From: an uncultured Candidatus Saccharibacteria bacterium
GTDB lineage: Bacteria; Patescibacteriota; Minisyncoccia; Phycocordibacterales; UBA9973
Direction of reading: 5' to 3'
Assembly: GCA_964356285.1 (NCBI GenBank)
Contig: CAYHGI010000002.1
Coordinates: 1 to 51,514 of the forward strand
DNA length: 51,514 bases
The notes below the pieces were generated by a model. The model was not told where the DNA came from, made no database searches, and saw nothing but the letters and a program-made list of their open reading frames with translations. Every line of letters starts with the position of its first letter. Position 1 is the stretch's first letter. The position numbers and the translations under genes are program-made. Shown piece by piece: positions 3,185 through 18,726 of the stretch.

Positions 3185-4870
3185 TTAATGAGAGAATACT
3201 TCAGTTCCTTTCATTTCTAAAGGTAGCCCGCTAAATTGCAGTTCGCTCTTAATTGCACGCCAATTCAGGGTTCTAAACGCATCCAATAGCGGGAGCATTC
3301 TTGGACTTTTGAGGTAGATTTCCTCAATTTGTCTTTTGTTTTTATACATTTTAAGAGGTTCTAACTTTTTATTTTCAGCAACTACGGCTTTTAATGGTAG
3401 TAGTGTGTTTTCTGTGTCAATTACTAGGTTTTTATTCATAATTGAGAGGTGCGAACCTAATCTTGATAATATGTCTTTTTTCTCAAATTCACCTTTTTCA
3501 AACTTGGCTTTAGCATCTCTAGCAAAAGCATAAACCTCGTCAGCTTTTTTCATAAAAGCATCAACATCCTTACCCGTCTTGTTAAAAATATTTTCCCAGT
3601 GTAATTTTTCTGTTGTTAATGGCTCTTTACGCATTTTAAATTCTTCCTCTGTTATTTCTTGATTGGCTCGCATATCAATTAACCCAGATAATTTTTTCAA
3701 ACATTCCCTATACGCCTTATTTTGTATATCAAGGATAGATTCGGTTGCTTGGGCTTGCTTGGCATTTTCTTGCATAGACCATTTCAAAGCAAAATCGTGC
3801 AACTCTGGCGGTATATTAAGAGAATCAATTTCTTTCATTATTTGCTTTTCTAGTTCTTTTTGCTCAACACCTTTTTGAGAGCAGTTTGGATTTTTGCGAT
3901 GCGTGCAATGATAATAAATATATCTATGAATGTTGCCATTTAATTGCCTCTTAACCTTTTCTTCTGCCGTGATGCCAGATTTGCACTCTCCGCACTCCAT
4001 AAGCCCCGTAAAAGCGAATGTGTGCGTCTTGGGGCGAGGTCTGCCTTTTCTTCCGAGTAATAATTGAATCTTGTCGTATTCTTCCGATTTCATTAAAGGT
4101 TTATATGTTCCCTTATACCAAATGCCACTTCCTCTCGGATATTCAAACATCCCATAATACATAGGGTTGGTAAAAAGATAATAAATTGTATTTCGGCTCA
4201 TCTTTTTTCCATTAGGCATTCTGAAGCCCCATTCTTTACTTACAATTTTCCAGATTTTTAGCGGAGTATAAAGTCCCGTAAGCATCATATCAACCATTTT
4301 ACGAATCAAATCAAATCTCTCTGGGTCTGGGTATATCTGTTTTCTGCCTCGTTCTTCATACTTATTATTTTTATAACCAACGGGAGCGGGGGCTGGATAC
4401 ATTCCTTTTTCCGCTTTCGTCTTTAACCCTCTTTTAACATCTTCACCCTTGTTGTCATTTTCTAGTTTCGCTTGGCTACAAAACAAGTTAAGCAAAAATT
4501 TATCATTGGGGATGTTGCGAAACATTTGGCTTGGGGTTCTAACTTCAAGTAATTTTCCCTCATCCATTAAATAAACCACCTTGCCTGTATCTATTGAATT
4601 TCTTGAAATTCGGCTTGCGTTCCAAACCAAAAGTCCGTTGGCAAAGCCACTATCAATTTTTTTAGTCAGTTCTGCAAATTTAGGTCTGCCGAGTTTTTTT
4701 GCTGAATGCGATTCTTCTATTATTTCAACTATTTTTAGTTTTTCTCTTTTGGCTACATCTTCAAGTTCCTTTCTCTGTGATTCAATAGATAAAACTTGCC
4801 TATCTTCTTGCTCGGAAGATTTACGGCAATAAATAATATATTTAGCTGGTTGTTTAGTTTTGTTTTCCAT
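3185..4870 (-). CDS. large serine recombinase (resolvase/invertase N-domain + recombinase domain + zinc ribbon)
   Basis: 561 aa. N-terminal 'YIIYCRKSSEQEDRQVLSIESQ' is the catalytic Ser motif. Cys cluster 'CGECKSG...YYHCTHRKNPNC'. Coiled-coil C-terminus. Confidence 0.85.
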   Translation of the reverse strand: MENKTKQPAKYIIYCRKSSEQEDRQVLSIESQRKELEDVAKREKLKIVEIIEESHSAKKLGRPKFAELTKKIDSGFANGLLVWNASRISRNSIDTGKVVYLMDEGKLLEVRTPSQMFRNIPNDKFLLNLFCSQAKLENDNKGEDVKRGLKTKAEKGMYPAPAPVGYKNNKYEERGRKQIYPDPERFDLIRKMVDMMLTGLYTPLKIWKIVSKEWGFRMPNGKKMSRNTIYYLFTNPMYYGMFEYPRGSGIWYKGTYKPLMKSEEYDKIQLLLGRKGRPRPKTHTFAFTGLMECGECKSGITAEEKVKRQLNGNIHRYIYYHCTHRKNPNCSQKGVEQKELEKQIMKEIDSLNIPPELHDFALKWSMQENAKQAQATESILDIQNKAYRECLKKLSGLIDMRANQEITEEEFKMRKEPLTTEKLHWENIFNKTGKDVDAFMKKADEVYAFARDAKAKFEKGEFEKKDILSRLGSHLSIMNKNLVIDTENTLLPLKAVVAENKKLEPLKMYKNKRQIEEIYLKSPRMLPLLDAFRTLNWRAIKSELQFSGLPLEMKGTEVFSH

Positions 4871-5171
4871 TAGTTTTTGCTTTACTCAAAAAACTATCAA
4901 ACTCCTTTTTATCAATACGAAACTCCTTGCCAAATTTATATGCCTTTAACTTCTTTGCTTCTATGTAGCGGTAAATCGTCATTATATTAACTCTTAACTT
5001 TTCTGCTAATTCTTTGGCTGTGTAAAATTCTCTTGTGGCTCGGTTTAGAGCTTCTATGGTTAATTTACCATAATCAATTTTTGATTTTTTTAAGTTAGGA
5101 TAGCTACCAAAAATAAATGTATTTTTATTTGATGCGGGTTTGGTGTTGTTCTTTTGTGATTGTTTATTCAT
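4854..5171 (-). CDS. excisionase/MerR-type helix-turn-helix DNA-binding protein
   Basis: 'YTAKELAEKLRVNIMTIYRYIEAKKLKAYKFGKEFRIDKKEFDSFL' is a typical excisionase-family HTH. It overlaps the serine recombinase start by 17 nt. Confidence 0.7.
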   Translation of the reverse strand: MNKQSQKNNTKPASNKNTFIFGSYPNLKKSKIDYGKLTIEALNRATREFYTAKELAEKLRVNIMTIYRYIEAKKLKAYKFGKEFRIDKKEFDSFLSKAKTNGKQN

Positions 5172-5221: not shown

Positions 5222-6331
5222 CTATTTTTCCTTTAATAACTGCCTTGCTTCATCTAAACTAATAACCACCCTTACTTCTCTTTTTCTACCTTCAAAGTCA
5301 ATGTTTCTAATAATTTCTATCTGTCTTTTTTCTTCAATATGCCCATACCCATAAGAGCCGAAAGTAGTCCCAACATTTTCGTGTCCCATATTTTGGCTAT
5401 ATGCTTTTTCTTCTTCTTTTGTCATTGGAAATTTAGACATTTCTTTAATGACAAAATGTCTAAAAGTGTGCGGATGATAATATTGAATCCCGAATTGCTT
5501 AAATCTTTTTTCAAATATTTTTCTTAAAGATGTGGAGCTTTTAAGGAATTTTGCTTCAACCTCGCCAGTATTATAATAACTGATATTGTCCTTTCCGTTT
5601 TCTATTTTTGTGGCTGGAAAGATAGGGTCATTTGGCTGGAATTTCTTTTCTTTTTCCAAATAATCAAACCATTCAATAAAATAATTTAATGCTTCTTTAT
5701 ACCCGAAAGGAATTAAAACAGTGGTAATTTTTTTAGAAAATTTTGTTTCTACTCCCAATACTGGGTCTTGATAAATAACCAATTCTTTTTTATCAAAACT
5801 TCTCATTGGGAGCGTCCTAATCGCTGTTATTCTTGCTCCCGTTAAGAAAGCCAAAGCGAATAAAGCTCTATCCCTCATTTCAATCTCGGTCTTGCCTTTC
5901 AAGCCCTCAATGACCTTTTTTATTTCTTCCAATGTTGGATACTCCACATTCTTGGGTTGTGTGGCTTCCCGAACTTCCTTTCTTGTTAAATTAAGATAAT
6001 CAATAGCCGTCTGGTTGATTTTTGACTTATAGCCCGCCTGCTTGGAAAGCCAGTCAAAGAAAATTTTTAAATGCCTTAAATTATCGTTGCAATAGGAAAT
6101 GCTGATATTTTCTTTGGAGTTCTTTTTCTTTTTATTTTTTAACCAGTCCTTAAAATCTTTTGCTTTGGTCATATTAAAAGAGCCAAAGTCGGCTTTTTTT
6201 GTAAAATCTTCCCATAGCCAAATCGCTTTTTCAAAGCACTTAATCGTATCGTCTGAAAATCGCTTTGAGTTTTTAAGCCATTCGTAAAATCTTCTTTTTA
6301 GCAGTTCGTTCCTATAAATTATTGTTGTCAT
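5222..6331 (-). CDS. tyrosine recombinase / phage-type integrase
   Basis: 369 aa. 'LTGARITAIRTL' (Arg I), 'HPHTFRHF' (H-x-x-R) and 'GHENVGTTFGSYGY' (His/Tyr region). Confidence 0.85.
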   Translation of the reverse strand: MTTIIYRNELLKRRFYEWLKNSKRFSDDTIKCFEKAIWLWEDFTKKADFGSFNMTKAKDFKDWLKNKKKKNSKENISISYCNDNLRHLKIFFDWLSKQAGYKSKINQTAIDYLNLTRKEVREATQPKNVEYPTLEEIKKVIEGLKGKTEIEMRDRALFALAFLTGARITAIRTLPMRSFDKKELVIYQDPVLGVETKFSKKITTVLIPFGYKEALNYFIEWFDYLEKEKKFQPNDPIFPATKIENGKDNISYYNTGEVEAKFLKSSTSLRKIFEKRFKQFGIQYYHPHTFRHFVIKEMSKFPMTKEEEKAYSQNMGHENVGTTFGSYGYGHIEEKRQIEIIRNIDFEGRKREVRVVISLDEARQLLKEK

Positions 6332-7391: not shown

Positions 7392-8933
7392 TTAGCTGTC
7401 TGTCATTTCATCGTTGCCAAGAAACTTCTTAACTTTATTATATGATTTATTTTCTGTCATTTCATCAAAGATTTTTTCTGATTCAGATTTATCATCCGAA
7501 TTAAATTTTATATCTCTGTCCCGAAAATCATCCCTAAAGGTTTTTTCGGGTATCAGTTTTATTTTTATTTTATAATTTCTTTCCATATCGTTATATTCAA
7601 CGGGGTCATCTTTTATAGTCGGGAATAAAGCTATTAAGCTCTTGGAAAGGGTTTGTTTTTGCTTCAATTTCTTACCTTTTTCCTTTCCAGTTAAACTGTC
7701 TATCGGGAAAATACCTTTCAGGGTTGATAGTAAAAAAAGAAAATCCCAAGCATCATTAGCTTTTGTTTTTTCTTCCGTCTTTTTAACTCTTTTGTCAGCA
7801 AACCCCATTTTTTCATAATCAGATTCATGTTTTTTTCCTTTTATAATTACTTCAACATCAAATTTATTTTTAAATTTTAAAGTAATATCTTCCCAGCGAG
7901 TATTTGCAGGTATAGGAAAAAGTAAATCTTTTTTTAATACCCCTTGTCTTACTATTTCTTTTTTTGGTTCACTCTTGCTAGTTGTTTGTGGTTGTTTGTC
8001 CACTACCATTTTTCTAACGGAATCTGCTTTTTGGGATTTATAGTCATAGAGAATTTTGTAATACCTATGGAACTCTGGCAAAATCTTCATTTGAATTATT
8101 GTTGGATATTTCCAAAATTCATCAGAGGTCATAATCATCATTCCATAGGGAGCTTTTTGATAAATAATGTCTTTTATTTCTATCAGACCCTCTCTTTCCA
8201 TTCCCAAAGCCGTTTCCAAAAAATAGGTATGAAGTATTGTTTGCTTATCCCAGATTTGCGTGTAATCTAGCTTTAAGCTATTAGGGGGATAGCCCTTACC
8301 AAGTTCTTTTTGTATGGCTATTGAAAAATCTTCTTTTTGTCTCTGATAACTCAAAGAACGCTGGGTCTTGTAATATGACTTATTGGATATGTAATTTTCT
8401 AAAAAATTATCTACTCTTTCTGCCAAATTTAGTTCATCTCTCATAAAACTGTCTATTTTTTCCTCCAAAAATTTTCTTACTTTATCTAGGGAAAGCTTTA
8501 TTTCAAAAGAGAGGAATTTTTGGGTTATTTCTTGTTGTGCTAAACTTTGGAAACTTAAAACATCAAGTTCAATATCCAGTGCATTTATAAGTTTCTCGTA
8601 ATATCCTTTTCCCAAATTGCAGTGTTTATCTGCAAAAGGATTATGAGTATTAAAAGAACTACCGCCATCTCCCAAAGAAGCCACTTTTAGTTTCTCCAGT
8701 TTTGCTCCAAACTCTCTCCCTTTTCGTCTGTATTCGTTGATATATCCTTGTCCTAATTTGTAATTATCAAGTTTGAGCAGACCTTCTTTGGCTAGACCTA
8801 GCAGTTCCGTAATTGATAGATTAAAACTGTCAAAAAGGTTAGAGATATTGTGCGTTTTTTTATTTATCTCTTTTTCTTTTAAGAGCAAAATTTTAGCACT
8901 TTCAATTTTGTCGTGTAAGCTTGGGGCGTTCAT
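7392..8933 (-). CDS. hypothetical protein, 513 aa, no recognisable domain
   Basis: Long uninterrupted ORF that heads the minus-strand recombinase gene string. Lys/Glu-rich C-terminal half. Confidence 0.6.
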   Translation of the reverse strand: MNAPSLHDKIESAKILLLKEKEINKKTHNISNLFDSFNLSITELLGLAKEGLLKLDNYKLGQGYINEYRRKGREFGAKLEKLKVASLGDGGSSFNTHNPFADKHCNLGKGYYEKLINALDIELDVLSFQSLAQQEITQKFLSFEIKLSLDKVRKFLEEKIDSFMRDELNLAERVDNFLENYISNKSYYKTQRSLSYQRQKEDFSIAIQKELGKGYPPNSLKLDYTQIWDKQTILHTYFLETALGMEREGLIEIKDIIYQKAPYGMMIMTSDEFWKYPTIIQMKILPEFHRYYKILYDYKSQKADSVRKMVVDKQPQTTSKSEPKKEIVRQGVLKKDLLFPIPANTRWEDITLKFKNKFDVEVIIKGKKHESDYEKMGFADKRVKKTEEKTKANDAWDFLFLLSTLKGIFPIDSLTGKEKGKKLKQKQTLSKSLIALFPTIKDDPVEYNDMERNYKIKIKLIPEKTFRDDFRDRDIKFNSDDKSESEKIFDEMTENKSYNKVKKFLGNDEMTDS

Positions 8934-8999
8934 TGTAATTATAATTTATGCTTAAAACATAAGCATTTTAGCACTTTTTTCTCCAAAAATAAAGGATTG

Positions 9000-9008
9000 T
9001 GTTATACT
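9000..9008 (+). promoter_or_regulatory. extended -10 promoter element (TGtTATACT) for the R-M methyltransferase
   Basis: TG at 9000-9001, one spacer nucleotide, then TATACT at 9003-9008. This predicts a ~160-nt leader before the ATG at 9176. Confidence 0.4.
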
Positions 9009-9037
9009 CAAAGGGTTAGAAAAATAAAATATAAAAT

Positions 9038-9172
9038 CCACTGCTACATAGAGACGGGCATCCGTCTCCTAATCATGTAGCAGTGGTCGGTAGCTCGCAA
9101 GAGCTGTCGGACAGTCTTTGACTGTCGGGAGCAACGGATGCCTTTTTCTGTTGCTCTTAAAACCACTGCTAC
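9038..9172 (+). promoter_or_regulatory. highly structured 5' leader / candidate cis-regulatory RNA upstream of the methyltransferase
   Basis: A 12-bp stem 9038-9049/9075-9086 encloses a 7-bp hairpin 9051-9057/9062-9068. Further hairpins: 9092-9096/9101-9105, 9110-9116/9120-9126 and 9129-9135/9150-9156. A second copy of CCACTGCTACA at 9162-9172 abuts the ATG. GGCATCCGT (9058-9066) is complementary to ACGGATGCC (9134-9142). Confidence 0.5.
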
Positions 9173-9175
9173 AAA

Positions 9176-11017
9176 ATGAAATTACAATTACAATCGGTAG
9201 TTAAAACTACCACAAATAATTTTGATACTGAAAGCGAAAATCAGTCCATTTTTGAACGGAATATACAAAGAGGTGTTGAGGCGGGTATAGTATCTTTTAA
9301 CGAAGATAAATCAAGAATAACCTACGCTTGCTCACGAGCTTATACAACGGGTTTTAAGAACCCAGAGGAAAAAGTTAGAGCTTCGTATTTTTGTGAGCTT
9401 GTGCTTGATTATAATTACCCAAAAGAGAAGATGGATTTTGAGGTATTAGTCCCTCGCCGAACCCCAGAGGATAGGGCTGATATTGTTATTTATGAAGATG
9501 AAGAATTAAAAACCCCCTACTTGGTAGTTGAAACAAAAAAAGATGGTATAACCGATGCGGAGTTTAAGCAAGCCATTGAGCAGGCGTTTGGCAACGCTAA
9601 CAGCATACGAGCCAAGCTCGCCTCTGTTGTCGCAGGAACTACTAAAACAGCTTTTGATGTTGCAGGATTTAAACCTAGCGAACGAGCAAAAAATGTTATT
9701 TCAGATATTCCTAAAAAATACGGCAAAACTCCCAAATATAGATTTATAAAGGGCGAAGCAGACAAAGAGTTAAAAACAGTTTCAAGGGACGAACTTATAA
9801 GGGCTTTGGAAAAAGCCCACGATACCGTTTGGCAAGGTGGAAGATTTGACCCGACAGACGCCTTTGACGAAGTTTCAAAACTCTTATTTTGCAAATTGAA
9901 AGACGAAAAAAATACTACCAAAGGAGACCCGTATTCTTTCCAAATAGGCACTCACGAATTACCAGAGGAAGTTTATAAAAGAATAAACGGCATTTACCAG
10001 AAAGCAAAAAAGGAGGACGCCGAAGTTTTTAAGGATGATATAAAATTAGAGCCGAAAGTTGTTTATAATGTAGTTGAGCATTTACAAACACTGGCAATAA
10101 ACAAAATTGATTTAGATACTAAAGGGGTCGCCTTTGAGGTATTTATGACAGATTTTTTCAAAGGCAAAATGGGGCAATTTTTTACGCCTCGTCCTATCAT
10201 ACAATTTTGCGTTAAGATGATGAATCCAGAAAAAGGCGAGCTAGTATTAGACCCAGCTTGCGGGAGCGGAGGATTTTTACTCAACGCTTTGGATTTTGTT
10301 AGAGAATATGCGAGTAAAAATTATGACGAGCAGGAAGCCAGAGACCATTGGCACGGCTTTGCCAAAGATAATTTATATGGCATTGAAATAAATGACAAAA
10401 TCGCCAGAGTTTGCAAAATGAATATGATTATCCACGATGATGGACATACCAATGTTATTAGCACGGACGCATTGGAAAATTTTGAAGATATAGAAAAAAT
10501 ACATCCTAAATTTGAAAAAGACCATTTTGACTTAATCCTTACCAATCCGCCTTTTGGAGCAACCATAAAAAGAACTGAAAAAGATTACTTGGATAAATAC
10601 AAATTGGGAGAGGATAAACCAAATCAGAAAACAGAGATTTTGTTTATTGAGCGTTGTATTGGCTTTGTGAAGCCCAAAACGGGCAGGATAGCGATTGTTT
10701 TACCAGACGGCATACTAACTAACTCCTCTCTGCAAAATGTAAGAGATTTCATAATGGAGCGTTGCCAGATTTTGGGAGTTGTATCTCTGCCCCAATTTGC
10801 TTTTGCTCATTTTGGAGCTGGAGTAAAATCTTCTTTGGTATTTTTGAGGAGAAAGGGAGAAAACGAAAGCATAAAAGATTACCCGATATTTATGTCTATT
10901 GCCGAACATATAGGGTATGACGCAACAGGAAGAGCGGACGCTAAAAATGATTTGGACACGATTTTTGATGAGTATAATAATTTCTTAAAAAATCCTAAAA
11001 ATTATGCAGGCATCTGA
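9176..11017 (+). CDS. N6-adenine DNA methyltransferase with an N-terminal PD-(D/E)xK nuclease-like domain (HsdM-like, or RM subunit of a BcgI-like Type IIB system)
   Basis: 613 aa. SAM motif 'VLDPACGSGGFL' and catalytic 'LTNPPFG'. The N-terminal ~150 aa contain 'RADIVIY...YLVVETKK' (D...ExK). Confidence 0.85.
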   Translation: MKLQLQSVVKTTTNNFDTESENQSIFERNIQRGVEAGIVSFNEDKSRITYACSRAYTTGFKNPEEKVRASYFCELVLDYNYPKEKMDFEVLVPRRTPEDRADIVIYEDEELKTPYLVVETKKDGITDAEFKQAIEQAFGNANSIRAKLASVVAGTTKTAFDVAGFKPSERAKNVISDIPKKYGKTPKYRFIKGEADKELKTVSRDELIRALEKAHDTVWQGGRFDPTDAFDEVSKLLFCKLKDEKNTTKGDPYSFQIGTHELPEEVYKRINGIYQKAKKEDAEVFKDDIKLEPKVVYNVVEHLQTLAINKIDLDTKGVAFEVFMTDFFKGKMGQFFTPRPIIQFCVKMMNPEKGELVLDPACGSGGFLLNALDFVREYASKNYDEQEARDHWHGFAKDNLYGIEINDKIARVCKMNMIIHDDGHTNVISTDALENFEDIEKIHPKFEKDHFDLILTNPPFGATIKRTEKDYLDKYKLGEDKPNQKTEILFIERCIGFVKPKTGRIAIVLPDGILTNSSLQNVRDFIMERCQILGVVSLPQFAFAHFGAGVKSSLVFLRRKGENESIKDYPIFMSIAEHIGYDATGRADAKNDLDTIFDEYNNFLKNPKNYAGI

Positions 11018-12398
11018 TGTAAAAAATAAATGCTTTGTAGTTTGGAGCAATAAAGTTGAGGGTAGATTTGACCCTCATTTTTACAAACCAGATTTTTCAT
11101 TGTTAGAAAAAAAACTTAAAAAAATAAATCACTCAACTTTTGGTGATGTTATTAAGTTTTCAAACGAGATTTGGAACGGCAAGGATTTTTTTACAGAAAA
11201 ATTTCCCTACATAGAAATAAGCGAAATTGATATACATACTGGGGAGATAAAAGACATAATCTACTATGAAAAATCCGAAGCTCCCAGTCGTGCAAAAATG
11301 ATAGTAAGAAATAATGACATAATTGTTTCAACCACTAGACCCCATAGAGGAGCGATTGCTTTTATAGATAATTCAAAAGACGGCTTCATCGCCTCAACGG
11401 GTTTTGCCGTATTGAGAGATTTGAAAAATAAAGAAGTTGATAAAAATTATCTTTTTTATATTTTAAGAACTAGTTTCATATTAGACCAGATGTTGCAGAG
11501 AAGTAGCGGAGGCAATTATCCAGCAATAACAGCCGAAGAATTGAAGAAAATAATTATACCTCTTCCGCCGATAGAAACTCAAAATAAAATCGTTGAGATA
11601 ATGCAGTCGGCTTACGAGAAAAAAGCAAGCAAGGAACAGGAAGCAGAAAGTGTTTTTAATTCCATTGATGATTATATTTTAGGAGAATTAGGTATAAAAA
11701 TGCCACAGGCGAAAGATAAGGAATGTTTTAGTGTTAGTTCTCAAGAAATTGGTAGTGGTAGATTGGATTGTTATTATTACCAGCCAAAATTTAAGGAGGG
11801 AGAAAAATCTTTGAAAAAAGCGGATTGCAAGGTTGAACCCTTAAAAAATTACATTACAAAAATACATTATGGAGCGTCCCTTAAAAATATCTATGTTGAT
11901 GAGGGCATACCATTATTGAGAATACAAAACTTAAAACCAAACAGGATAGTTTTAGACGATGTGGTTATGGTTTCCGAAACGAGAAGAAAGGAATTAGGCA
12001 ACGCCTTTGTGAGTGAGGGCGACTTGCTTATTTCAAGAAGCGGAAGCGTTGGTATAGTTTCTGTTGTGCCAAAAGAAGCAGAGGGTTTTGCGTTTGGTTC
12101 TTTTATGATTAAGTTTTGTCTAAACGATAAAATAGATAAAGATTTTGTTTCTGTATGGCTTAATAATAAAATATCCCAGTTATTTATTAAACGAGAGAAA
12201 ATCGGGGCTATACAGGGCAATATAACGATTGAGACCATTGAGAACTTACAGATACCAACTCCACCATTAGCAACTCAAAAGAAATTGGCGGGAGAGGTTA
12301 AAGAACGATTAGCCCAAGTAAAAAAAATAAATGCAGAAGCCCAAGATGAAATTGAGAAGGCAAAATTTTTTGTTGAAAATTTAATAGTTAAAAAATAA
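11004..12398 (+). CDS. hsdS: restriction-modification specificity (S) subunit with two target-recognition domains
   Basis: 464 aa. Duplicated architecture with two conserved helical spacers: 'IPLPPIETQNKIVEIM' and 'IPTPPLATQKKLAGEV'. Overlaps the methyltransferase stop by 14 nt. Confidence 0.85.
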   Translation: MQASDVKNKCFVVWSNKVEGRFDPHFYKPDFSLLEKKLKKINHSTFGDVIKFSNEIWNGKDFFTEKFPYIEISEIDIHTGEIKDIIYYEKSEAPSRAKMIVRNNDIIVSTTRPHRGAIAFIDNSKDGFIASTGFAVLRDLKNKEVDKNYLFYILRTSFILDQMLQRSSGGNYPAITAEELKKIIIPLPPIETQNKIVEIMQSAYEKKASKEQEAESVFNSIDDYILGELGIKMPQAKDKECFSVSSQEIGSGRLDCYYYQPKFKEGEKSLKKADCKVEPLKNYITKIHYGASLKNIYVDEGIPLLRIQNLKPNRIVLDDVVMVSETRRKELGNAFVSEGDLLISRSGSVGIVSVVPKEAEGFAFGSFMIKFCLNDKIDKDFVSVWLNNKISQLFIKREKIGAIQGNITIETIENLQIPTPPLATQKKLAGEVKERLAQVKKINAEAQDEIEKAKFFVENLIVKK

Positions 12399-13824: not shown

Positions 13825-13896
13825 GCCCCTGTAAGTTAATGGATAGACTAACTTGGTTCTAACGAGAAAATAGAGGTTCAATTCCTCTCGGGGGCA
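13825..13896 (+). tRNA. tRNA-Arg (anticodon TCT)
   Basis: Folded by hand. Acceptor GCCCCTG/CGGGGGC (one T.G pair). D-arm AGTT/GACT with a GG loop. Anticodon stem CTTG/CGAG (A.A at the top), loop GTTCTAA. T-arm AGAGG-TTCAATT-CCTCT. Discriminator A. CCA is not encoded. Confidence 0.7.
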
Positions 13897-18685: not shown

Positions 18686-18726
18686 TCCCGTTATTGGCTA
18701 AAAAGTTTTTTTGGTTGTATAATAAA

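Follow-up and report, generated by a model that had tools for sequence, protein, structure and literature searches.

A conserved leader RNA with two predicted, mutually exclusive folds precedes restriction-modification operons on a family of Patescibacteria mobile elements

A structured leader at the start of a restriction-modification operon

The stretch of DNA considered here (hereafter "the window": all 51,514 nucleotides [nt] of positions 1 to 51,514 of contig CAYHGI010000002.1, assembly GCA_964356285.1) comes from an uncultured Candidatus Saccharibacteria bacterium of the Patescibacteriota and carries, on its plus strand, a two-gene restriction-modification (R-M) operon that opens with the methyltransferase gene. 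Directly upstream of this operon lies a repeat-rich leader, for which a reading of the sequence alone, made without database searches (hereafter the sequence-only reading), had proposed mutually exclusive pairings that work as a translational ON/OFF switch. The features of the leader and of the operon are given in Table 1.

An 11-mer (CCACTGCTACA) was found in exactly three copies across the 51.5 kb of the window, two of them in plus orientation (9038-9048 and 9163-9173) and one inverted (9076-9086). With up to one mismatch allowed, the window held three copies against 0.2 expected by chance, and none of 100 shuffled sequences gave three. The inverted copy (X') is complementary to both the upstream copy (X1) and the downstream copy (X2), and X2 is separated from the ATG at 9176 by nothing more than AA. 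The sequence-only reading had recognized this third copy but placed it at 9162-9172, 3 nt from the ATG instead of 2 nt. Its five hairpins are all present (the X1:X' stem with an inner hairpin at 9051-9068, H1, H2 and H3), and so is the long-range complementarity that it described between an upstream strand (PKa) and a strand within H3 (PKb), although PKa lies at 9057-9065 and not at 9058-9066. Since PKb sits inside the 5' arm and loop of H3, H3 and the long-range helix compete. The inner hairpin has lineage-specific counterparts (GCUC...GAGC) in other leaders. The recurring TGTCGG that had been pointed out is real but no separate feature, since it consists of the 3' arm of each of these two hairpins, H1 and H2, with the G that follows.

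The promoter proposed for the leader is present as the motif TGTTATACT at 9000-9008 and is best treated as a putative extended -10 element: it was not picked up by a consensus promoter scan and a -35 element is absent. Transcription would start near 9016, giving a leader of ~160 nt. TGnTATAAT-like elements occupy the equivalent site in homologous leaders, where they coincide in part with the stop codon of the HTH_17 gene that lies upstream; no helix-turn-helix (HTH) gene adjoins the window leader according to the open reading frame (ORF) list and Pfam. Most other leaders carry an additional 5' hairpin domain, P0 (UUGCCUAACCC...), which begins with the motif CTAACCCTT. P0 is missing from the window, where AAAGGGTTAG at 9010-9019 is the reverse complement of that motif, perhaps by chance, perhaps as the remnant of a rearrangement.

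Table 1. Features of the leader and the operon in the window (coordinates in nt; bp, base pairs; aa, amino acids)
Feature	Position	Strand	Basis
Putative extended -10 promoter element, TGTTATACT	9000-9008	+	Sequence; putative
A-rich run before X1	9020-9037	+	
X1 (CCACTGCTACAT), upstream copy of the repeated 11- to 12-mer; with X' forms helix P1a	9038-9049	+	
Inner hairpin GAGACGG-GCAU-CCGUCUC in the loop of P1a; sequesters PKa	9051-9068	+	Fold prediction
PKa GGCAUCCGU (DNA GGCATCCGT), 5' strand of the long-range (pseudoknot) helix	9057-9065	+	Complementary to 9134-9142
X' (ATGTAGCAGTGG), shared strand, partner X1 or X2	9075-9086	+	
H1, 9-bp hairpin with GCAA (GNRA) tetraloop	9088-9109	+	
H2, 7-bp hairpin, UUU loop in the window, GNRA in homologues	9110-9126	+	
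H3, 12-bp hairpin with PKb within its 5' arm and loop	9127-9158	+	
PKb ACGGAUGCC (DNA ACGGATGCC), 3' strand of the long-range helix	9134-9142	+	
U tract UUUUU, terminator-like tail directly 3' of PKb	9143-9147	+	
X2 (CCACTGCTACA), downstream copy; with X' forms helix P1b, closing a four-way junction	9163-9173	+	
Start codon and 19-codon N-terminal extension (MKLQLQSVVKTTTNNFDTE)	9176-9232	+	
H4, hairpin within the ORF, GGUAG-UUAAAA-CUACC	9196-9211	+	Compensatory variants
Gene 1, N6 DNA methyltransferase, type I family, with N-terminal HSDR_N_2 nuclease-like domain, 613 aa	9176-11017	+	Pfam, PADLOC
Gene 2, specificity (S) subunit, overlapping the methyltransferase (M) gene by 14 nt	11004-12398	+	Pfam Methylase_S, PADLOC

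The plus strand of the region folds to −70.9 kcal/mol (z = −9.8 relative to dinucleotide shuffles), and the minus strand folds more weakly (−63.3 kcal/mol, z = −6.9). A scan for known RNA families, which the sequence-only reading had suggested, matched no family at the leader: against Rfam 15 (4227 models, gathering threshold) the only match in the whole window was tRNA-Arg (13825-13896), and a permissive scan of 8800-9400 returned chance-level hits only (the best, on the minus strand, had E = 0.68 and scored 19 bits where the threshold is 50). The S-adenosylmethionine (SAM) riboswitch classes in Rfam gave no match in the leader. ARAGORN and the Rfam tRNA and tmRNA models found nothing tRNA-like there either, calling only the tRNA-Arg at 13825, and a terminator scan called no plus-strand terminator at the leader.

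Homologous leaders and their covariation

Homologues of the window methyltransferase (7879 were scored) are mostly ~596 aa long, without the 17- to 19-aa N-terminal extension of the window protein and without an upstream gap (in L006, for example, the gap is 18 nt; L numbers are our own locus identifiers), and few combine the extension with an upstream gap of 200 to 300 nt. Further leaders were found by pattern scans on the extension, by a peptide profile search and by anchoring on the upstream excisionase-like HTH_17 gene (856 homologues), for a collection of 17 distinct leaders, i.e., the window and 16 others. A Hainich groundwater metagenome contig (L129) is identical to the window over the leader stretch compared.

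The leader always lies 5' of a methyltransferase gene, across three unrelated kinds of R-M system. It precedes a type I-family M+S pair in the window, L002, L003, L005, L127 and L131; a type III mod gene in L133, L143, L148, L149, L169, L177/L184, L183 and L185, followed by a called res gene on every contig that is long enough; and an N6_N4 methyltransferase-Mrr_cat fusion in L159. The backbone of these islands runs in the order Toprim primase, DUF5659 protein, large protein, HTH_17 protein, leader and R-M operon, and the 513-aa, DUF5659 and 132-aa proteins of the window are distant homologues of the corresponding island proteins. The leader belongs to this backbone, which is that of a family of Patescibacteria mobile elements, and it is a modular unit, portable from one R-M system to another, unrelated one. 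The HTH_17 proteins of L177 and L183 are identical (P0133) and the downstream mod gene is the same, yet the leaders in between are of different lineages, which argues that leaders are exchanged as cassettes; the exchanged module extends from the HTH_17 stop codon to a conserved AAAAAAUUACAAUUACAAU just past the start codon. At L173 (1795-2100), the leader breaks off inside H1 and is followed by unrelated DNA with minus-strand ORFs, and this locus looks like a rearranged or decayed island. The modularity across R-M systems had escaped the sequence-only reading, as had two features considered below, namely, the absence of Shine-Dalgarno (SD) motifs throughout the window and the terminator-like U tract.

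All leaders share one order of elements: P0 (where present), an A run, X1, PKa with the inner hairpin, X', H1, H2, H3 (including PKb and the U tract), an A-rich linker, X2, 0 to 3 nt and the AUG. Six types of X were distinguished, unrelated between lineages: CCAYTGCKACA, ACKGTTCAGGT, the related pair ACTATCCCTAG/CCCATCCCTGA, CCAGTCACGG, CCCRACCAAGA and CGGATAAGGCA. X1, X' and X2 were all present, and changed together, in 15 of the 17 leaders, and the distance from the end of X2 to the ATG was 0 to 3 nt in all 15 (0 nt in L003, L143 and L131).

To score the pairings, sequences were cut into structural segments, reassembly was checked against the source, and segments were padded with N to hold register; because each helix consists of ungapped complementary strands in every sequence, the result is independent of gap placement. 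For the pairings of what we call fold A (X1:X', PKa:PKb, H1 and H2), 96.4% of cells were paired across the 17 leaders and 34 of 41 pairs had changed on both sides; for those of fold B (X':X2, H1, H2 and H3) the figures were 96.0% and 32 of 37. When the partner strand was slid by 1 to 3 columns, 30 to 44% of cells were paired, and none of 500 shuffles reached the observed values. Positions 2 to 11 of P1a were Watson-Crick paired in all 170 cells, with two to four pair types per position, and P1b was 96.6% paired with double changes in 10 of its 12 pairs and a single G.U. The long-range PKa:PKb helix (96.7% of cells paired, both-side changes in 9 of 11 pairs), H1 (98.5%, double changes in 8 of 9 pairs), H2 (100%, 7 of 9 pairs) and the base of H3 covary likewise. 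RNAalifold, run on the first of the two alignments made, returned fold B as the consensus unprompted (covariation term −12.25). Both alternatives for X' are therefore conserved with compensatory changes at the RNA level in 17 distinct homologues, as are the two strands of the long-range helix, and the covariation that the sequence-only reading had named as a check is present. Outside the helices, conservation is limited to the GNRA loops and the U tract; junctions measure 0 to 1 nt, and the stems contain no conserved internal loops.

The folded molecule is best sought on the sense strand. Across the leaders, the 261 pairs of H1 and H2 include 40 G.U (15%) and 0 A.C, GNRA tetraloops are confined to the plus strand, and the pairing that is kept despite a C-to-U change in X2 (L148) and G.U ends in X1 (L002) is possible in RNA only. 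This asymmetry, together with the plus-strand GNRA loops, points to a sense-strand RNA. A minus-strand RNA, for which the X1:X' hairpin and its U run resemble a terminator, was ruled out by the same asymmetry, the strand of the GNRA loops and the weaker minus-strand fold. The sole minus-strand promoter-like site in 8700-9400 (8919-8890) lies within the 5' end of a divergent ORF (7392-8933, minus strand) and reads away from the leader; weak reverse promoters may also exist. The leader RNA is real, conserved and not described before, and the claims about its structure are strong.

Two predicted folds and a putative gate on translation

Whereas H1 and H2, the two GNRA-capped hairpins, are constant, X' can pair with X1 or with X2, PKb can pair with PKa or with the 3' arm of H3, and both alternatives are conserved. 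X1:X' and PKa:PKb together make an H-type pseudoknot; in lineage 2, the PKa:PKb helix grows to 11 to 14 bp and takes in the 5' arm of H3. When 10 homologues were folded under constraints, the two global folds were predicted to be nearly isoenergetic, with E(B)−E(A) from −5.4 to +2.2 kcal/mol on totals of −60 to −88 kcal/mol, and the unconstrained minimum-free-energy structure was fold A in three and fold B in seven. The direct-path estimate of the refolding barrier was 8 to 15 kcal/mol. Transcript prefixes that end before X2 were predicted to form X1:X' in 9 of the 10 homologues.

None of the 43 genes in the window has an SD motif, and a TATAAT-like hexamer lies 6 to 8 nt before the start codon of several ORFs (e.g., those with starts at 18694, 23126, 31283, 32585, 39340 [minus strand] and 39363), which suggests that translation in this Patescibacteria genome is SD independent and often leaderless. 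An SD-less start at 9176 is therefore normal here, and it is the long structured leader that is the exception. SD sequestration does not apply to such a gene, and a conserved GGGAG in H3 was ruled out as a distant SD because it varies with compensation in PKa. Since initiation without SD sites must rely on an unstructured, A/U-rich start region, fold B should block it and fold A should permit it. In fold A, with X1:X' formed and with or without PKa:PKb, the start region would be single stranded; in fold B, a closed cloverleaf in which X':X2 closes the four-way junction of H1, H2 and H3, the 11 to 12 nt directly 5' of the AUG would be held in a helix, and in some lineages the AUG would be paired as well. 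With X1 and X' transcribed first, new transcripts would begin in fold A (ON) and might pass to fold B (OFF) by strand displacement. The outcome would be to limit or to time the synthesis of potentially toxic R-M enzymes on a mobile element, and an extra factor may bias the balance between A and B. The anatomy of the sequence, the conservation and covariation of both alternatives, the strand, the link to R-M operons and the predicted energies are results of the analysis; where the transcript begins and ends, which fold is ON, in what order the folds arise and what purpose they serve are inferences.

We put the probability that the leader is a cis-acting bistable gate on translation initiation of the R-M operon at roughly 60%. 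The ON/OFF switch of the sequence-only reading is, in this form, the best reading of the leader, given that X2 abuts the start codon by 0 to 3 nt wherever it is present. The further suggestion, that the switch delays nuclease/methylase expression when a new host is entered and so stands in for a C protein, is not supported; nor does the layout support a delay of the nuclease relative to the methylase, as the leader precedes a whole methyltransferase-first operon and cannot alone order M before R.

Several points weigh against the gate. L177 and L184 have no X2, though they share the island context of L183, which has one, and an X':X2 gate is therefore not indispensable; these two leaders have a start-codon hairpin (GGGCAU/AUGCCC) that shares sequence with the 3' arm of H3. 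In four leaders of lineage 2a, the AUG is paired in a local hairpin with X2 in its loop (AGGCAU/AUGCCU, AUGGCAU/AUGCCAU, GCAUAG/CUAUGC and GCAUA/UAUGC), which makes it less clear which fold is ON. Transcription, and not translation, is the output suggested by the U tract that follows PKb. In alignments of the leaders, no unpaired core is conserved in the way expected of a ligand pocket, and no trigger was found. These leaders amount to only about six independent lineages, and the alignment register was set by hand to the structures. Finally, the energy differences between the folds are within the error of the nearest-neighbor model, and pseudoknot energies are only approximated.

A second, smaller three-copy toggle was observed in L003, L127, L131, L143, L159 and L177. 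There, the AUGGCA just before X1 has two complements, UGCC(U)AA at the leader 5' end and a copy at the start codon, AUGCC(U)AA; the second codon is CCN in the lineages that have it. An upstream GGCA that belongs to this toggle (UGCC.../...GGCA.../AUGCC) is, in lineage 2a, an additional partner for AUGCC.

Alternative explanations

The most serious alternative is that the leader is mainly a transcription attenuator, in which PKa:PKb and the U tract would make up an intrinsic terminator. Most transcripts would then stop ~30 nt short of the start codon, with the inner hairpin and/or X1:X' as the antiterminator, and H3 and X':X2 would matter only after read-through. In all 17 leaders, and in both lineages despite differing helix sequences, G/C-rich PKb is followed by 6 to 7 U in 9 nt. 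The covariation of the long-range helix fits this explanation too, as do the overlap of the window inner hairpin with PKa, as expected of an antiterminator, and the long lineage 2 helix that reaches into the 5' arm of H3. Against it, the "loop" of such a terminator would span 49 to 72 nt and enclose X', H1 and H2, far from canonical and consistent with the empty plus-strand terminator scan, and with X1:X' formed, the long-range helix becomes a pseudoknot. The competing inner hairpin of lineage 2 has only 4 bp, which would make termination nearly constitutive, and the conservation and covariation of X2, as well as its abutment on the ATG, are left unexplained. Attenuation is thus unlikely as the main function, though it may operate alongside a translational gate and has to be taken seriously as a co-mechanism, be it rival or partner.

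It is also conceivable, if fairly unlikely, that the switch answers to a factor, whether riboswitch-like or dependent on a protein or a trans-acting RNA, with an island or host factor or a small ligand (e.g., SAM) stabilizing one fold. Near-isoenergetic states with a modest barrier are what would be expected of an RNA poised to respond, the sharing of a P1-like strand with a helix that sequesters the start site is the layout of a translational riboswitch, and conserved backbone genes without assigned function (DUF5659, 65- to 77-aa ORFs and HTH_17) accompany the leader. However, the leader offers no conserved unpaired nucleotides or internal loops from which to build a pocket, its junctions measure only 0 to 1 nt, and the Rfam models, those for SAM included, do not match it. 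Nor is the methyltransferase itself a candidate regulator, given that three unrelated methyltransferases share the leader; its autoregulation is unlikely for the same reason.

The behavior of X calls for an explanation of its own. X is only 30 to 50% identical between leaders whose H1 and H2 are 79 to 89% identical, as though swapped wholesale, and near-identical X occurs with different R-M types (type I family in L005 and type III in L133; likewise L003 and L143). Strict Watson-Crick pairing and wholesale swaps could reflect selection for an exact balance between competing helices, homogenization at the DNA level or a role in specificity in trans. One version of the last, which we think distinctly unlikely, makes X a programmable "address": leader RNAs (e.g., prematurely terminated ones with X' exposed) would act in trans on the start region (X2) of full-length mRNAs with the same address. 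If so, each element lineage would set R-M expression or establishment through an RNA circuit of its own, similar to incompatibility, co-resident related elements would be insulated from one another, and the leader would be an exchangeable, self-contained RNA control cassette for toxic cargo. Simpler identities for X were rejected. The pairs of loci just named rule out an R-M recognition site; an HTH_17 operator is ruled out by L177 and L183, in which an identical protein goes with unrelated X; and no locus contains any further copy with up to one mismatch, which excludes an att site or a trans target within the element.

We regard as very doubtful that fold B is a signal for processing or stability and not an OFF state, either as a tRNA-like four-way junction cut at the end of X2 to yield a leaderless mRNA or as a compact 5' domain that blocks 5' decay. 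Fold B is indeed a perfectly stacked four-way junction with an 11- to 12-bp closing stem, X2 ends 0 to 3 nt before the AUG, and the genome bears the signs of leaderless genes described above. Yet neither ARAGORN nor the tRNA and tmRNA models saw anything tRNA-like, a cut after the discriminator base would destroy the AUG in the three leaders with 0-nt spacing, and both the conserved rival copy X1 and the X2-less leaders would go unexplained.

A DNA-level element (a recombinase or cruciform site, as the sequence-only reading had offered in second place, operator repeats of a regulator, an R-M enzyme target, or a single-strand origin or single-stranded DNA [ssDNA] promoter) might account for the strict Watson-Crick X helices (170/170 in P1a against 40 G.U among the H1 and H2 pairs), for the replacement of X between similar leaders through homogenization or protein recognition and for the integrase genes nearby, but it is highly improbable given the strand asymmetry, the sense-strand GNRA loops, the weaker minus-strand fold, an X that tracks neither R-M type nor HTH_17 protein and has no further copies, and a fixed position of X2 relative to the ATG that no DNA model explains. 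For an ssDNA promoter of the Frpo kind, moreover, the folding strand would need to be the template, which is the wrong strand here.

Genomic context of the leader

The leader is joined to its cargo through the coding sequence. The N-terminal extension (consensus M(P)KKLQLQSAVKSATxxFD(T/I)E), missing in the majority of homologues of the window methyltransferase, is common to unrelated type III mod genes and conserved at the nucleotide level. It is fused in frame to two unrelated methyltransferase families (the window; L133, 3400-3460; L149, L183 and L177), and genes of type III still show their native Met, with an AAGG motif, downstream of it (…KAKGRPMLQW), so that the cargo-exchange junction lies inside the ORF. 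An exhaustive profile search for the extension peptide added only two fragments. Hairpin H4, within the extension, varies in a compensatory manner (GGCAG/CUGCC, GGUAG/CUACC, GGCAA/UUGCC and GGCGG/CCGCU, with GUAGC-GAAA-GCUAC in L183 and L177) through changes that alter amino acids; it is missing in L169, L185 and L159 and is therefore dispensable.

The HSDR_N_2 domain of the window methyltransferase is PD-(D/E)xK-like, and the island has no separate HsdR (9176-12398); the module may restrict (BcgI-like) or may only methylate. The nearest homologues of this methyltransferase are from Patescibacteria. Upstream, the opposite strand encodes a 513-aa protein without assigned function, a DUF5659 protein, a small HTH protein and a tyrosine integrase. 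A minus-strand trio of adjacent recombination genes (large serine recombinase, 3185-4870; excisionase-like HTH protein, 4854-5171; tyrosine integrase, 5222-6331) suggests nested or tandem mobile elements to the left of the R-M island.

Phage and plasmid collections gave no match. In IMG/VR, neither the extension and ORF-hairpin sequence nor a relative of the HTH_17 gene was found, one methyltransferase was 65% identical to that of the window, and a 15-nt pattern scan of viral contigs returned chance matches only.

Comparison with known systems

That a start site can be exposed or buried by helices excluding one another is an established principle, known from riboswitch platforms, the cloverleaf of the MS2 maturation gene, hok mRNA and the fold-back inhibition of IS10. 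The leader resembles translational riboswitch platforms (e.g., the add adenine riboswitch) in its three-strand competition, in which a strand of the 5' helix pairs instead with the initiation region, and in having ON and OFF folds of similar energy. In contrast to them, it has no conserved ligand-binding core, Rfam family or SD; its rival helices are perfect duplexes of equal length (11 to 12 bp) and hypervariable sequence, and a second toggle, at PKb, is superimposed on the first.

In the MS2 maturation gene and in hok, early local structure delays the closed fold and confines translation to young transcripts. As in these, a long-distance helix closes a multi-hairpin leader over the start site and an earlier local structure forms first, which for the leader described here is a prediction only. 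The hok gene belongs to an addiction module, as R-M systems do. Unlike these mRNAs, the leader uses as its decoy an exact second copy of the start-adjacent sequence, has no SD and shows no evident antisense partner. In repZ of IncI-alpha and IncB plasmids, a pseudoknot that contacts the region of the ribosome-binding site, and is blocked by an antisense RNA, decides expression. There, too, the loop of a distant upstream hairpin pairs with a distal leader sequence of a mobile-element gene, whereas in the leader, the long-range partner is the arm and loop of H3, followed by the U tract, and the promoter scan of 8700-9400 pointed to no antisense RNA. The leader shares with intrinsic terminators and attenuators a G/C-rich helix strand directly followed by a U tract and an alternative hairpin over the 5' strand; it differs in that its strands are 49 to 72 nt apart, enclose X', H1 and H2 and form a pseudoknot once X1:X' is in place.

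R-M systems are toxic if misexpressed, and a self-contained multistate leader would, if the reading is right, be a new mode of R-M regulation. It would travel with the mobile-element backbone of ultra-small groundwater bacteria, fused to whichever R-M operon was acquired, and would be a rare case of structured-RNA regulation in Patescibacteria (the Candidate Phyla Radiation, CPR), with a bearing on the control of initiation without SD pairing. The explicit design (a decoy copy, equal and perfect helices and a superimposed pseudoknot or terminator-like helix) might also serve as a template for engineered strand-displacement switches.

A literature search found nothing similar to the leader and no RNA-based control of this kind described for R-M systems. 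The controls covered in a recent review are C proteins, HTH-fused methyltransferases, promoter methylation, antisense RNAs (EcoRI and Eco29kI) and a start-site hairpin (Cfr9I) (PMC12707154). That 2025 review lists no riboswitch-like or multistate leader, and the terms riboswitch, leaderless and untranslated are absent from it (PMC12707154). The leader is akin to these controls in its presumed purpose, to hold R-M expression in check on a mobile element, and in that hairpins or antisense RNAs which limit access to the start site have been reported. Known controls act on the endonuclease gene or on promoters, whereas the leader precedes a methyltransferase-first operon and is portable between R-M types. 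It departs from control by C proteins and their operators as well, as shown by L177 and L183, where the repeats do not covary with the adjacent HTH regulator. In sum, this is a new family of leader RNAs that sets an established switching principle in a new biological context.

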